64,000 nt of DNA, taken from positions 33,480,001-33,544,000 of the forward strand of contig OZ024749.1 in assembly GCA_964016885.1 (NCBI GenBank). Reading direction: 5' to 3'. Position 1 is the first letter of the stretch, and every line of letters begins with the position of its first letter. The stretch is from Eledone cirrhosa. Lineage: Eukaryota. The notes under the pieces are model-generated. The model had not been told where the DNA came from, did no database searches, and saw nothing but the letters and a program-made list of their open reading frames with translations. A program made the translations under genes and the position numbers. Positions 19,238 to 53,137 of this stretch are shown here, piece after piece.

Positions 19238-19289
<52 letters not shown>

Positions 19290-19406
19290 AAAATGTTTGA
19301 CTCCGACGGCAGAGCTGAAGCAACGGCTATTTCTGGACTCCAGAAATAGCTGCCCAGAAATAGCCGTCGAAACGGCTTGAGCTCTGCCATCGGGGTCGAA
19401 CATATT

Positions 19407-19490
<84 letters not shown>

Positions 19491-19524
19491 GGACTCTTTT
19501 CCTATTACCCACTCTACTACCCTA
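19021..19524. mobile_element. Cluster of Family A variant pieces separated by (TA)n
   Basis: Tail at 19021-19110, hairpins at 19131-19240 and 19287-19410, partial tail at 19488-19524. Confidence 0.75.
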
Positions 19525-20063
19525 GATAAAATGCTTAAATAGTTTCGACTATTAATTCTGCCATGAAGGGAAACCATTGGGCCGCGGATTTGCAAGATAT
19601 AGCCCCCCCAGATCATCACAGATCCTCCTCCATGTTTAACAGTTGGAAGAAGGTAGTCTGGGTCAACTGCTTTTTTTGGCTGTCTCCACACGTATACTCG
19701 GCCGGTGGTCAGAAATAAGGTAAAGGATGACTCGTCCGAGAAAATAACATTCTTCCACTGCTCTAGGGACCAATTCTCTAGGGTTTTACTCGACTCTAAA
19801 CGCTTTGCAACGTTTGTTTTTGATAGTAGTGGTTTTCTGATTGCAGCCCTCCCGTGAAATCCGGCTTTGTGCAGCTCCCGGCGAACAGTTTTTGTGGAAA
19901 CTGGGTTCTCGAGGTGGTCATTAAGCTCTGCAGTAATTTTGGGAGCTGTACTTTTGTGATCCTTTCTAACAATTCGCGTAAGAGTCCGACGGTCCCTATC
20001 GGAAAGTTTTGGTTTTCTCCCGGAGCTTTGTTTCGACGAGGAGGTTTTTTCCCCTCTTTCTCA
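19524..20063 (-). pseudogene. Disrupted Tc1-family transposase fragment
   Basis: Minus strand gives [23 protein letters not shown] (HTH region), [12 protein letters not shown] (first catalytic D) and [14 protein letters not shown]. The reading frame is disrupted and both ends are truncated. Confidence 0.9.
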
Positions 20064-20990: not shown

Positions 20991-21087
<97 letters not shown>

Positions 21088-21136
21088 TATACCCTCTTTG
21101 GATTTTAGTCTTCAAATTTATTATTATTACTATTAT

Positions 21137-21189
<53 letters not shown>

Positions 21190-21273
21190 AAAGGGAAACA
21201 GAAATAACAACACAATCGGTACAGTATATGGAAGGTATATATTAGGTTAACGCTTGATATAGCAGGAAGAGGG

Positions 21274-21309
21274 TCTTAACGTTTCGGACGCTAGTCCTTC
21301 ATCAGAAGA
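21274..21309 (-). ncRNA. Ultra-minimal hammerhead motif (GAAACGUH class)
   Basis: Minus strand TCTT-CTGATGA-A-GGAC(tagc)GTCC-GAAAC-GTT-AAGA. Confidence 0.75.
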
Positions 21310-21668
21310 AAGAATGAGAAATAAAATAGATTGAGTGGACGGGCGGGATGGAATTGGAAAAAATGTCACACACACACACATATATATATATATAAAGCAA
21401 CACTATATTAACATACACACATATATAAAACACTTTGGTAATAAACGAAAACTAGTGACTGATTATTAAAACGTTTAATATCCAGTGATGACGAAACTAT
21501 CAGTAACCAGATTCTTCTGATAAACCTGGCTGTCTAAAAGTCAAATGGAGGAGTAAAGAACATACAAAACAAAACAAAGAAGAGTAAACAACAAATATAA
21601 AAGTATATTAAATCAATGTCGTTAACAACCAAATCAACTAGTAAATATGACGAAGGTACACACACGCG

Positions 21669-21767
<99 letters not shown>

Positions 21768-21967
21768 TTTGCAAAGAGTTCATGCTCGACGGCTGAGCTC
21801 TGTTGTTTCAACGGCGAATATATATATATATATATATTGTATACATATATAATTCTACATATATTCATATATATTTGTGTACACACACACATGTATATAT
21901 ATATATATATATATATAATCAGTTCCTGATTATTTACTAGAATTCTATAAGAACCAAACATTCATGA

Positions 21968-22058
21968 TTTCAGCAAACAGGAGGAGTAGTTGGCTTTGAT
22001 AAGCATCAATAAATGCGAAACAGGGCCCTGTCAGCTTTATCTCCCCTGTTTGCTGAAA
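21968..22058 (+). ncRNA. Type-I hammerhead ribozyme motif, U3-A8 core variant, extended stem I
   Basis: GGCT-TTGATAA-GCAT(caataa)ATGC-GAAA-CAGGGCCCTG-TC-AGCT. Outer 14-bp helix tttcagcaaacagg/cctgtttgctgaaa. GUC triplet, predicted cut after 22032. Confidence 0.85.
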
Positions 22059-22300
22059 ATTAAAGTAAGTGAGTCTGTCACTACTCTAAAACAATAGCAT
22101 AAGGTCTTCGAAATGCTTTTGATTAAGCATACAGTGTATTGCAAAATACACTATATATACATTCATATATATATAGCTATTTCAGAGCACCAATTCTAAT
22201 TTATATATATATATATATATATAAACACACACATATATATATTTATAATATACTCATATATGCTTGTATGTATGTCTATCTATCTATCTATCTATCTATC

Positions 22301-23243
22301 TGGCAGGCGGATCCGGTTGTCAGTGGAGACTCCACCGCAACATTCTATAGAGGGCTGGTACGCAACAGGTGCGACGACGCCCTCGGAGAAGCCCTAGACA
22401 TGGAGGAGGACGAACTGGCTAGCCTGTTCGGTAGGACATTCAGCCCGGGACCTATGGACAACTTCCAGAAGTCCCTGGCCTGGCAGTGCTACCGAGGGGC
22501 TTTACCCGTTCGAGAAAGGCTCTACAGACACGGGCGCCCGGGTAGGGACCCCGCCAAAAAGATCTGTCCCAGATGCGTGTGCGACGAGGAAACCGTTGCA
22601 CACGCATTAGTACACTGCTCGGGCGTAGCCGATCTGTGGGGCTATGTCGAACAACTGCTGTCAAGGGTGGGACCGATCCGGCTGACCACCGAGTCTATTG
22701 TAATGATCAAGCCGCCTCCCCCCTTCAAAGATGAAGCAGAGGCGGTGTTTCTGTGCGTAATAGCCATGGCGAAAGAGGTTGTATGGTGGACGCGTCTGAA
22801 AGGACTGAGGTCGGGCACCTTTCTCTCTGGCCAACAACTGGTCCGTTTCTTCCGATATCATTTCGGAAGAAGGATCAGGATGGAGAGAGAGGTGCTGCAC
22901 CCCAGCCGTTTCTATGAAAGATGGGTGAAAGTGGCGAGAATGGCCCGTGTGAATGGGCCTTCACTCTACATCAGACTATAGGTGAGGAAGATGAAAGACC
23001 AAGGGAGCACCCCCTCTCTGTGCTCCTGAGGAGAAGGGTTGCACACTTTTTTCGGGGGTGTGTGCGACCCCCCAAGGCGCCTCCTCTCTATTGAGGATTT
23101 TGTTAAAAATTTTATTTTTTGTTATATCTTATTTTATTTTTATATTTTGTTATTGCCTCCTCCTTATTGAGGACGCCTTTTTGTGTAAACTCCCCCCATT
23201 GTACTTGTCCCACTTTTGATGCCCTAGTGGCAAATAAAAGAAA
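22301..23243 (+). mobile_element. 5'-truncated L1/Tx1-type LINE (ORF2 C-terminus with CCHC zinc-binding region, 3'UTR)
   Basis: LAWQCYRGALPV...CPRCVCDEETVAHALVHC...WWTR matches the zf-RVT-type C-terminus of L1/Tx1 ORF2. Stop at 22981, AATAAA at ~23233, (TATC)n on both flanks. Confidence 0.85.
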
Positions 23244-49204: not shown

Positions 49205-49505
49205 GCGGGGACATAGAAATAATCGGGCTGGATGCCCGATCGCGCAGTTAAACCACTGGGAGTGAAGAACCCCTAGCCCATGTCAGGGTATTCTTCTAGG
49301 AGAAGGCATCTCAGGAAACTGGGTTAACTCCGATATAAAACCTGCGGCTCAGTAGTTACCGATGATGTTGATCTTTTCTTCTTTTCGGGTTATAGCTACT
49401 GTCGCTCAGAGAGTGGGATTGGTTCAGTGCACAGTCTTTCCTCACTTTAAAAATATTCGTCACGCACAGGCATTGCACGAGTGCATTAATAATTATTAAT
49501 AGTGT

Positions 49506-49540
<35 letters not shown>

Positions 49541-52500
49541 TATTATTACTTTTTTTTTTTTTTTTTTTTTTTTTTCCAATTCAATGATGTTCCAGAACAA
49601 TGTAAACGAGATAATTGCCAATTTGGGTTCTGGAACAAAAAAGATCATTGGCAATAAGGGCAGGGGCCCCAAGTTATCACAACCTGGGCCCGCCCGTCAT
49701 CGTGCCATTGTAATAGAGCCAAACAGGGCATTTAGTCTTGGCTGCTGGAACGTACGGACGCTGCTTGACGGGGATTCTTTGGAGCGTCCTGAACGAAGGA
49801 CCGCTCTTGTTGCGAAGGAGCTTCGACGTTACGATCTTGACATCGTGGCTTTGTCTGAGACGAGGTTAGCTGGAGATGGTCATCTTACGGAATTTTGTGG
49901 AGAATATACATTCTTCTGGAAAGGAAGAGATGAAGGAACCAGAAGAGAGGCTGGGGTAGGATTTGCTGTTAAGACTGTACTGGTGAATAAATTGGAAGAA
50001 TTCCCAGTGGGGATTAGTGAGCGTCTTATGTCCATGAGAGTTCCGCTGGACAAGGGAAGATATGCTACCCTGGTGAGTGTGTATGCTCCAACTATGAATT
50101 CTGTCGATGAAGAAAAACTGTCCTTTTACCATGCCTTGAAAGGTGTTTTAAGAAATATCCCTCAGGCAGACAAAGTCATCGTGCTTGGTGACTTTAATGC
50201 TAGAGTGGGTAGGGATTTTAACACATGGAATGTAATCGGAAGGCATGGGGTGGGAAAGTGTAACAGCAATGGTATGCTCTTGCTGCAGATGTGTGAGGAG
50301 CTGGATCTGTGTGTTACCAACACCATGTTCCAACAAAAGAACAAATTCAAGACCACATGGATGCATCCTGCATCTAAGGAATGGCATCTTTTGGACTACG
50401 TCCTAGTCAGGATGCGTGACAGACAGGATGTGCGGTGTGTTCGTGTTCTTCGTGGAGCTGAGTGCTGGACGGACCACCGCCTGGTACGCGCAAAAGTGAA
50501 TCTAATCACCAAACGTAAAATCCGGGCTCCTGGTGTTGCCCTGCCCAAAAGATTGAATGCTGCTCGTCTTAAGGATAAAAATGTGAAGAGGACATTGGAA
50601 GAAGAGATGCAGGCTGCAGATCTTGGTGAGGATTGGCCGACCCTTAAAAAGTCGGTTTATGATGTAGGCAGACGTGTTCTGGGATTGGTGCAGAGAAAAC
50701 ATCAGGACTGGTTTAATGAGAAAGATGTGCATATAGATGACTTGTTGGCTGATAAGAGGCGCGCTCTGTCACGCTACTTGACGGCAAGACCACAGGAGAG
50801 GAATACGTTGCATGAGGAGCTCAGGGATGTAAAATCACGTGTTAGGCGGAGTCTTTCTCAGATGAAGGATCAGTGGTGGAGTGAGAAGGCTGGTGAGATA
50901 CAAACTGCGTCTGATTGCAATAACACAAAGCTGTTGTACAGTCTCTTGCGTGAGGTTTATGGACCGTCTTCTTCTCTGGTGACACCGATTCGCAGCAGGG
51001 ATGGCAAAGAACTTCTTCGTGACTCACAGGGAATTCTACGAAGGTGGCGGGAGCACTTTGATGATCTTTTGAATCAGCCGTCTGTCGTCAGTGAAGATTT
51101 CCTCAATCTCATTCCGGAAAGTCCTGTGAAAGTAGCTCTCGCAGAGCCTCCGACACTTGTGGAGGTTGCAGTGGCTATTTCGAAGCTGAACAGTGGAAGA
51201 TCTCCAGGTATGGATGGCATACATGCTGAGCTCCTACAATATGGTGGTGAGAGACTCCTGCAACATCTTCACTCTCTGTTTGGAAGGATATGGGCTAATG
51301 AATCCGTGCCTGAGGACTGGAGAGATGCAGTAATGGTGGTCTTGTACAAGGGAAAGGGTAACAGGAATGATTGTGGGAACTACAGAGGTATATCATTGCT
51401 TTCTGTCGTGGGGAAAGTTTTATGTAGGGTGCTTCTAGACCGTCTGCTGACACACATTGCAGATTGTGTCCTTCCTGAAAGTCAATCTGGTTTTCGTGTT
51501 GGACGCGGCACTACTGATATGATCTTCTCAGCTAGACAGCTCCAGGAGAAGTGCATTGAACAGGGCTTGGATCTGTATCAGGTTTTTGTCGATCTGACAA
51601 AGGCTTTCGATACTGTCAACAGAGATGCATTATGGAAGGTTCTCCAGAAACTTGGTTGCCCTGATAAGTTCCTTGCTTTAGTTAGGTCTTTCCATGACGA
51701 CATGAAGGCTTGGGTTAATGTCGGAGGTAACATGTCGGAGCCTATCTCAGTAAAAAATGGAGTGAAACAGGGGGATATTCCAGCACCGACCCTGTTTGCC
51801 ATATACTTTGCAATGGTTTTCTGTATTGCATTCAGGAATTGCGAGCATGGTGTTTACATCCGATATCGAACCTCAGGCAGCATATTTAACATCAGGCGCT
51901 TTGCTGCGAAGACAAAAGTATTTACATCAGTCATAAGAGACCTCTTGTATGCAGATGATTGCGATCTTGTAGCGCACACAGAGAGTGATATGCAGCACAT
52001 TTTGAATGTATTTTCTGACGCTTGCACTGCCCTGGGTTTGACTGTCAGTCTCAAGAAAACCGTCGTCATGTACCAACCTGCACCTGGTAGGCAGTACACT
52101 GAACCAAACATCTATGTGTATGGCAAACGACTTGGAGTGGTTGATCAGTTTGTCTACCTGGGAAGCACTGTCAATCGATACGGCAACCTTGACGGTGAAA
52201 TCTCACTTAGGATTAGGAAAGCAAGTGATGCTTTCGGAAAGCTAGAAAGGCGACTCTGGGGTCGGCGAGACATATGCAGGAGGACAAAGGTAAAGGTGTA
52301 CAGGGCATGTGTACTCTCTTGTCTTCTTTATGCCTGCGAGACCTGGGTCACATATCGACGCCACCTTAAGCAATTGGAGCGTTTCCATCAGATGTGTCTC
52401 AGACGGATACATGGCGTTCGCTGGAGGGACCACATCAGTGATGTCGAGATTTTGGAAAGCTCTATGTGTGACAGTATAGAAGCTCTTGTGCTTAAGCAGC

Positions 52501-53137
52501 GACTCCGTTGGAGTGGTCACCTTGCCAGGATGAAGGATTCTAGAATACCAAAACAACTCTTCTATGGAGAGTTGGTTAAAGGAAAACGACCGCCACATAA
52601 ACCAAAAAAGAGGTATAAGGATTCCTTGAAGGCCTCTCTGAAAGACGCTAACATCTCTGCTGATACATGGGAAAATATTGCTGCTGATCGTAATAAATGG
52701 AGAAAGACTGTATATGAGGGAAAAGTTGCCTTTGAGGCATCTCGAATCGCACACGAGAAAGTAAAGCGGGACGTGAGGAAGGGTATTGCTGTTGCACTTC
52801 CAGACGGCGAGGGTCCTCCTATGTTTCTGGCATGCGGCGTCTGTGCGAGACTCTGCCTAAGCAAAGCTGGACTCGAAAGTCATCTTCGCAGTCATAAAGT
52901 AAGACCAGTGGTTGACTACCAGGCTGCTGTTGGAGATGCTACTCATCATGCTTGCCAAACATGTGGTAGAGAATGTAAATCAGCAGGAGGACTCAAGCGA
53001 CATGCAAAAGTACACGAACTCCAACCACAGCCGACTATTCCCAGTAAGTGTTTTGGTTGCCGACTCTGTGCAAGACATTTTGGATCATTGGCTGGGCTAA
53101 AAAGCCACATTCGATCGCAGCACTGTTAGTTGCTATC

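Follow-up and report, generated by a model that had tools for sequence, protein, structure and literature searches.

A probable 319-bp retrozyme family of Eledone cirrhosa with a U3-A8 hammerhead, Penelope-type insertion anatomy and a predicted dimer switch

The closest described systems are the metazoan non-LTR retrozymes of coral, mussel and axolotl (PMC7229834) and of vertebrates (bioRxiv 10.64898/2026.07.22.740005). In these papers a retrozyme is a low-GC, non-coding tandem unit of ~300 bp with one type I hammerhead ribozyme, found as monomers, dimers and long arrays in genomes that also hold Penelope-like elements. Mobilisation by the latter has been proposed from this co-occurrence and from pLTR homology; the repeats are said to show no motif pointing to a helper element (PMC7761336), and something other than self-pairing is held to keep the ribozyme blocked when an animal retrozyme is circular (PMC7229834). 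Penelope-like elements leave an inverted copy and a one-sided tail at (TA)n targets (PMC8557442), and a Penelope-type enzyme was shown in vitro to cut AT-rich DNA on both strands and to initiate at a pair of internal RNA sites between which the tail lies (PMC11167929). As regards the ribozyme core, U3-A8 is a natural and active covariation (PMC3088659), with ~1,300 U3-A8 motifs known from Penelope elements of Schistosoma (PMC4209133).

We describe a 319-bp repeat family that shares the retrozyme traits listed above and has a copy in a 64,000-nt stretch of the Eledone cirrhosa genome (assembly GCA_964016885.1, contig OZ024749.1, positions 33,480,001 to 33,544,000; hereafter the window). The element carries the features by which non-LTR retrozymes are recognised from sequence (PMC7229834, PMC7761336, PMC6765202, bioRxiv 10.64898/2026.07.22.740005), namely one type I hammerhead per unit of a tandem repeat in the 150-450-bp range, low GC (32-35%) and no protein (longest ORF 15-42 aa). 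It departs from the metazoan retrozymes in that most of its cores hold U3-A8, in having a 10-12-nt palindrome as stem III instead of 1-2 bp with a palindromic tetraloop, and in its predicted self-blocking. The inverted arm and tail seen here are undescribed for retrozymes in the accessible text of PMC7229834 and bioRxiv 10.64898/2026.07.22.740005; expression as linear and circular unit-length RNA is a further trait of non-LTR retrozymes. With the Penelope-like elements Penelope/Poseidon, Neptune and Naiad (PMC8557442, PMC11167929, PMC4209133) it shares 5' truncation, partial tandems, the inverted 5' copy, the tail at one end, the (TA)n targets and a type I hammerhead, and with the minimal motifs of Schistosoma the U3-A8 pair (PMC4209133). 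Unlike Penelope-like elements, it has no RT or endonuclease ORF and its ribozyme is full-size, not minimal; the tail measures ~25 nt against the 30-40 nt printed for Penelope-type insertions. The palindrome recalls the double hammerheads of amphibian satellites and retrozymes (PMC7229834, PMC4209133), where a palindromic stem III pairs two ribozymes in tandems. The amphibian monomer, however, fails from a weak stem III, whereas in the present family the formation of stem III is possible and the predicted obstacle is a helix that competes for the core. Our literature search found no octopus or cephalopod retrozyme and no account of the 319-bp family; Repbase or Dfam, subscription papers and the supplements of retrozyme papers may hold one.

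The hammerhead motif of the window

The sequence of the motif reads as a type I hammerhead in which U3-A8 and each of the three helices are present and the GUC site falls at 22032. Its parts are (window positions):

21968-21981 with 22045-22058 (+): outer helix of stem I, 14 perfect bp
A21982 (+): bulged A in stem I, read from the sequence
21983-21986 with 22041-22044 (+): GGAG/CUCC segment of stem I, 4 bp
21987-21991 with 22037-22040 (+): stem I internal loop UAGUU/UUAU
21992-21995 with 22033-22036 (+): proximal stem I GGCU/AGCU, 97.5% paired in the alignment described below
21983-21995 (+): inner 5' part of stem I, comprising GGAG, UAGUU and GGCU
21996-22002 (+): core UUGAUAA, U3-U4-G5-A6-U7-A8-A9
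22003-22016 (+): stem-loop II, GCAU-CAAUAA-AUGC
22017-22020 (+): GAAA, G12-A13-A14-A15.1
22020-22031 (+): palindromic stem III of 12 nt, predicted dimerisation helix
22032 (+): C17, predicted by the hammerhead consensus to be cleaved 3' of the base; C in 162 of the 168 segments described below
22033-22058 (+): 3' strand of stem I, comprising AGCU, the loop strand, CUCC and the outer helix

The U3-A8 core, stem II, the palindromic stem III and the GUC site thus lie where a first-pass annotation of this DNA had placed them. Its account of stem I as an internal loop followed by 14 bp names both parts correctly but passes over the 4-bp segment and the bulge that intervene.

A search with a complete type I descriptor, which required C3-G8 or U3-A8, at least 4 bp in each of stems I and II and at least 3 bp in stem III, returned this motif as the one match in the window and matched 0 of 100 block-shuffled windows. 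The folding z-score of the motif was -5.7 and 0 of 200 shuffles folded equally well; the minimum-energy fold differs from the hammerhead fold. Nothing in the window reached its gathering score in the Rfam scan. The model Hammerhead_HH9 (RF02275, clan CL00010) aligned over its whole length and kept the core, loop II and the internal loop of stem I in register, but at 21 bits (E 0.0035) the match stayed below the gathering score, which is 52; the motif is therefore filed under the hammerhead class and not under HH9. Among ten sister loci no Rfam hammerhead family was found at E<=0.001. Matches to microRNA families in Rfam were rejected as low-complexity or hairpin matches below cut-off, and a bacterial promoter scan was empty, the bacterial model being irrelevant to an animal genome.

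Six further places in the window show hammerhead-like cores with stem II only (37802 (+), 54122 (+), 62456 (-), 57508 (-), 59800 (+) and 23992 (-)); none passes the full type I descriptor, and they are probably fragments of Penelope repeats. The window also contains a LINE, recognised by endonuclease and RT domains in an open frame of 1208 aa (49503-53129, +), a LINE 3' fragment with a weak zf-RVT match that adjoins the retrozyme copy (22300-22981, +) and a Tc1-type transposase fragment (19239-20060, -).

The 319-bp family and its covariation

The hammerhead sits inside a 319-bp non-coding repeat that is present as solos, inverted pairs and arrays. The copy in the window is composed as follows:

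21914-22202 (+): 5'-truncated solo retrozyme copy, unit positions 31-319 of 319, without an inverted arm
21894-21917 (unstranded): left (TA)n target; the TATA at 21914-21917 is common to the target and the 5' end of the element
22202-22223 (unstranded): right (TA)n target
22165-22175 (+): internal TA tract, at which inverted arms of other copies have their tail-less outer end
22176-22202 (+): 'tail' of ~25 nt up to the fixed 3' end

This copy is 97.2-99.0% identical to the 29 best other copies and differs from their majority at three positions. The repeat search over 3.0 Gb of its own genome yielded 1590 candidates, of which 40 were scored, giving 116 matches on many contigs; full-length copies among the scored matches were 95-99% identical, and the family is, judging by its copies, young. 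Units measure 318-322 bp and repeat with a period of 320 at 97% matches, and contig C14 holds an array of 28 units whose start is an inverted piece. The genome holds at least 2,250 ribozyme cores of the repeat. Exact-pattern counts, all of them lower bounds, gave at least 289 cores of the window type and 3203 copies of the 3' 21-mer; with patterns that differ slightly, there were at least 1829 cores of the U3 lineage (A8 in 98 of 100 of the matches listed) against 401 C3-G8 cores, and 20 with C3 and another base at position 8. The U3-A8 copies would indeed be missed by a strict CUGANGA search, as the annotation had supposed.

Several further loci were noted. Locus L086 (C1:82390400-82396000) is an array of greater age, comprising at least 16 units; many of its cores, those of A3-A8 units among them, have decayed, and it behaves like a satellite; L062 (874-1510) is a tandem of a 163-bp half unit without ribozyme. 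At L197 and L204 there is a further short repeat, whose minimal hammerhead-like core is of a different kind, arranged in inverted pairs beside TA runs, and a repeat of that type is also present in the flanks of L002 and L006. Contigs of run X1 contain the 319-bp repeat. From run X4, six low-depth or partial contigs were examined; the ribozyme contig is near-identical, and at a depth of 2.1 it was too thin for us to accept a second species carrying the retrozyme. Record 11 of the same run, a 340-nt contig at depth 25.9, shares just 97 nt around the tail, with 19 differences, and is possibly a related element in organism B.

For covariation analysis 59 copies were chosen from 128 distinct segments; antisense and rearranged matches were left out, as were copies nearly identical to others of the window subfamily and the majority of the units in one decayed array. 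In this alignment 94.1% of cells were paired and 14 of 29 pairs showed two-sided changes, and the covariation score was 0.236 compared with 0.152 for shuffled alignments (0/500 as high) and 0.036-0.086 for slid controls. The outer helix of stem I was paired in 93.3% of cells, five of its 14 pairs changing on both sides, and stem II showed two-sided changes in three of four pairs, with five recurrent fully paired versions. On the tree every compensatory change traces to a single event, so that these cell counts overstate the support. Compensatory changes occur in every helix, with stem I open as in the type I fold. Other genomic copies, to which the annotation had looked for a check, therefore retain the core and helices and covary in all of them. 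Among 168 segments from loci L001-L185, counted if at least five of the seven core letters were present, the 3-8 position holds a Watson-Crick pair (U-A 127, C-G 34, other 7), and U4, G5, A6, A9, G12, A13, A14, A15.1-U16.1 and H17 were each kept in 159-168.

C3-G8 is carried by sister subfamilies of the U3-A8 window type. A tree was built from 68 rows in which positions 3 and 8 had been masked; in it the C3 and U3 lineages separate on one branch (100/98), and the 3-8 switch is hence one event; the root being the midpoint, the tree gives it no direction. The claim that U3-A8 is a compensatory form of C3-G8 is thus borne out by sister lineages, in agreement with the natural variants in PMC3088659 and PMC4209133. 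Within the U3 lineage, the nesting of the tree, in which several forks are open, suggests that the palindrome centre followed the path AGAGCUCU -> AGGGCUCU -> AGGGCCCU (the window type) -> AGGGCCUU -> AAGGCCUU via G-U intermediates, and two 10-nt variants of stem III remain perfect palindromes. By this pattern of substitution the hammerhead is real and under selection, and we hold with high confidence that the lineage is one of functional ribozymes. Because core and helices survive repeated replacement of subfamilies, the ribozyme matters at some step.

Predicted folds of monomer and dimer

In the monomer, the folding programs place part of the core in a competing helix:

21992-22027 (+): predicted blocking helix of 7 bp, 21992-21998 with 22021-22027, burying U3-U4-G5

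For the window motif the hammerhead fold is predicted to lie 4.4 kcal/mol above the minimum-energy fold (4.9 by ensemble), and the blocking fold is also preferred in the 289-nt copy and in the circular unit. Among eight subfamily representatives the gap between hammerhead and best fold was 2.0-7.4 kcal/mol. The energy models behind these and the following folds leave out Mg2+ and tertiary contacts such as that of loops I and II, which could make up for 2-7 kcal/mol. Control palindromes blocked as well in 62, 13, 16, 3 and 43 of 256 cases for five related U3 types, and in 173/256, 10/64 and 30/64 for the other three subfamily types. The main C3-G8 subfamily, which has a G-A centre, is weakly blocked (2.0 kcal; 173/256 controls equal) and gives no clean cofold. 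The blocking helix is paired in 93.6% of cells of the 59 copies; just two of its seven pairs change on both sides, so that selection for this helix is suggested at most.

Two window copies, when folded together, are predicted to form a double hammerhead through the palindrome (-93.1 versus 2 x -40.6 kcal/mol), and six of eight subfamily representatives cofold with both cores free. Twelve natural tandem pairs were folded. In all four that carry two perfect palindromes, these pair with each other (P 0.82-0.97); among the remaining eight, two pair their palindromes (0.95, 0.96) and six do not (0.00-0.30), and crossed stems I form partly (0.00-0.94). The pair that would close a 2-nt hairpin loop covaries (A-U 36, G-C 14, G-U 5, other 1 and gap 3 of 59), which suggests itself as the best independent sign of a dimer. 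As far as its substitutions tell, the palindrome evolves like an intermolecular duplex. For this reason, and with the monomer predicted to misfold, the proposal of an active full-type ribozyme stands as regards a real hammerhead fold under selection and is weakened as regards the activity of a single copy. A transcript of 21960-22065 alone could, given the predicted misfold, read as a false negative at low RNA concentration.

Insertion anatomy and probable mode of transposition

We examined 120 regions of contig C1, consisting of 60 of the first 66 listed 3' 21-mer clusters and 60 later places picked because a TA run follows the 3' end there. These gave 112 candidate termini, and the TA filter left 100 of them, spread over 97 loci. 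An inverted arm stands head to head with the tailed arm at 75 of these 100 termini, with a gap of 0-2 nt in 55 of the 75. The outer ends of the inverted arms lie at unit positions 283-293, i.e. the internal TA tract, in 56 cases, at the tailed end in two and elsewhere in 17, and 45 of the 56 tail-less ends are then followed by TA. There are two fixed ends ~25 nt apart, in agreement with the paired internal start sites on both strands in PMC11167929, and the tail is one-sided. Ribozyme-anchored loci show the same pairing of tailed and tail-less ends, and genome-wide 836 tailed and 809 tail-less ends abut TA runs; the tail-less end may in part arise simply because the TA target pairs with the internal AU tract. 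Inverted 5'-truncated copy, one-sided tail and a microsatellite or AT-rich target are the marks of Penelope-type insertion, and they provide a line of support apart from the co-occurrence and pLTR homology invoked for other retrozymes. As the targets are (TA)n, they would mask a target duplication of the kind given for non-LTR retrozymes, which is longer than 4 bp when present.

The cleavage site is crossed by 64 of 100 tailed and 44 of 56 inverted arms, and 29 of the 100 and 26 of the 56 exceed 319 nt, so that dispersed copies can be longer than one unit. The 5' ends of contig C1 termini are not enriched within 4 nt of the cleavage site (6 of 156 versus 4.4 expected); five head-to-head joints, counted with no control, are centred on it. 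Since arms cross the site, exceed one unit and have no pile-up of 5' ends there, the template is not a cleaved linear monomer. Rare alleles are shared by 2.4% between successive rounds and 4.3% between paired arms, compared with 1.0% between insertions, and both segments were of the same subfamily type in 20 of 20 insertions scored, single differences allowed.

The 319-bp unit lacks the RT plus GIY-YIG ORF of an autonomous Penelope-like element and is, by its coding content, non-autonomous. At L083 (1-982) the last 69 nt of the unit are joined in the same orientation to a decayed RT region, with no continuation beyond. By its motifs this region is of Penelope type, and the joint may be a template switch, or an insertion plus a deletion. 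With 8141 candidates the RT family is abundant, and a minimal hammerhead stands at its end. Apart from the L083 joint itself, no sequence was shared with the unit in 29 other loci of this one family, and the search through it gave no partner; nor did these 29 loci show the homology to the pLTR of a Penelope family that marks the pLTR-derived retrozymes of Li et al. 2026. A 3' repeat of the L083 family with its minimal hammerhead lies in the window at 20998-21367 (-), core at 21305, and the same minimal hammerhead follows RT in L187-L214.

Taken as a whole, we consider it probable that the motif is the conserved hammerhead of a non-LTR retrozyme that is cut as a dimer, made circular and copied by a Penelope-like RT in trans; the steps that follow are our reading of the family, subfamilies, covariation and insertion anatomy documented above. 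Retrozyme arrays would be transcribed, and two palindromes would form a 12-bp stem III that frees both cores, cleavage after C17 yielding unit-length RNA to be ligated into circles. A lone ribozyme, for example in a monomer circle, would drop into the blocking helix and stay uncut. A borrowed Penelope-like enzyme would then cut a TA repeat and start cDNA on both target strands from two fixed internal sites ~25 nt apart; the cDNAs would run through the intact ribozyme, often past one unit, and be joined head to head. The window copy, being one-armed with one ribozyme, releases no unit-length RNA by itself and is likely a dead-end solo. Against the scheme, eight of nine Xenopus retrozyme dimers stayed uncleaved in vitro (Li et al. 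2026, bioRxiv 10.64898/2026.07.22.740005). The parts of this scheme differ in strength. Mobilisation by a Penelope-type enzyme is very probable, and we incline slightly towards cleavage mainly as a dimer. More tentatively, and with doubts prevailing, the blocking helix may keep circles uncut and the palindromic duplex turn on cleavage in tandems, the circle carrying a two-site start signal of Penelope type that fixes one start per target strand.

A competing account of the same retrozyme, in line with the annotation, holds that the monomer cleaves efficiently through a 4-bp stem III with a tetraloop and a loop I-loop II contact, the blocking helix being a modelling artefact. Such a stem III can form, the loops are similar to those of the HH9 consensus, cleavage of the monomer is known from the retrozymes of coral and mussel (PMC7229834) and the main C3-G8 subfamily is weakly blocked. 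We nevertheless regard efficient monomer cleavage as a credible but less than probable account, for in the five U3 subfamilies with 12-nt palindromes the monomer hammerhead lies 3.2-7.4 kcal/mol above the ensemble, and the central pairs of the palindrome covary though the hairpin cannot form them.

Alternatively, the template could be not a circle but a multimeric RNA, transcribed from a few master arrays and left uncut, the element being a short non-autonomous Penelope derivative for whose transposition cleavage is slow or dispensable. The lack of a 5'-end pile-up at the cleavage site and the existence of long arrays would fit, as would the in vitro finding that cleavage is dispensable for the anole Penelope element (PMC11167929); yet core and helices are kept through repeated subfamily replacement and known retrozymes accumulate as circles (PMC7229834), and we think this account unlikely. 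Spread of a satellite or microsatellite-associated repeat by DNA recombination, with the hammerhead a relic or a chance match, would explain why arrays are homogenised internally and why one old array (L086) has decayed cores. It is very improbable in view of the fixed 3' ends, truncated 5' ends and inverted arms of dispersed copies, of the covariation and of the absence of the motif from all 100 shuffled windows.

The 319-bp family is thus an addition to a known retroelement class, with a predicted dimer switch, and most members of a family like this are missed by Rfam and strict CUGANGA searches. One genome here records a natural switch between C3-G8 and U3-A8 together with a ladder of compensatory changes, and the family offers a concrete blocking helix along with an insertion anatomy that points to Penelope-type enzymes. 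If the switch reading is true, it would explain what protects animal retrozyme circles from their own ribozyme, and it would provide a 319-nt trans-substrate for learning what a Penelope enzyme recognises.
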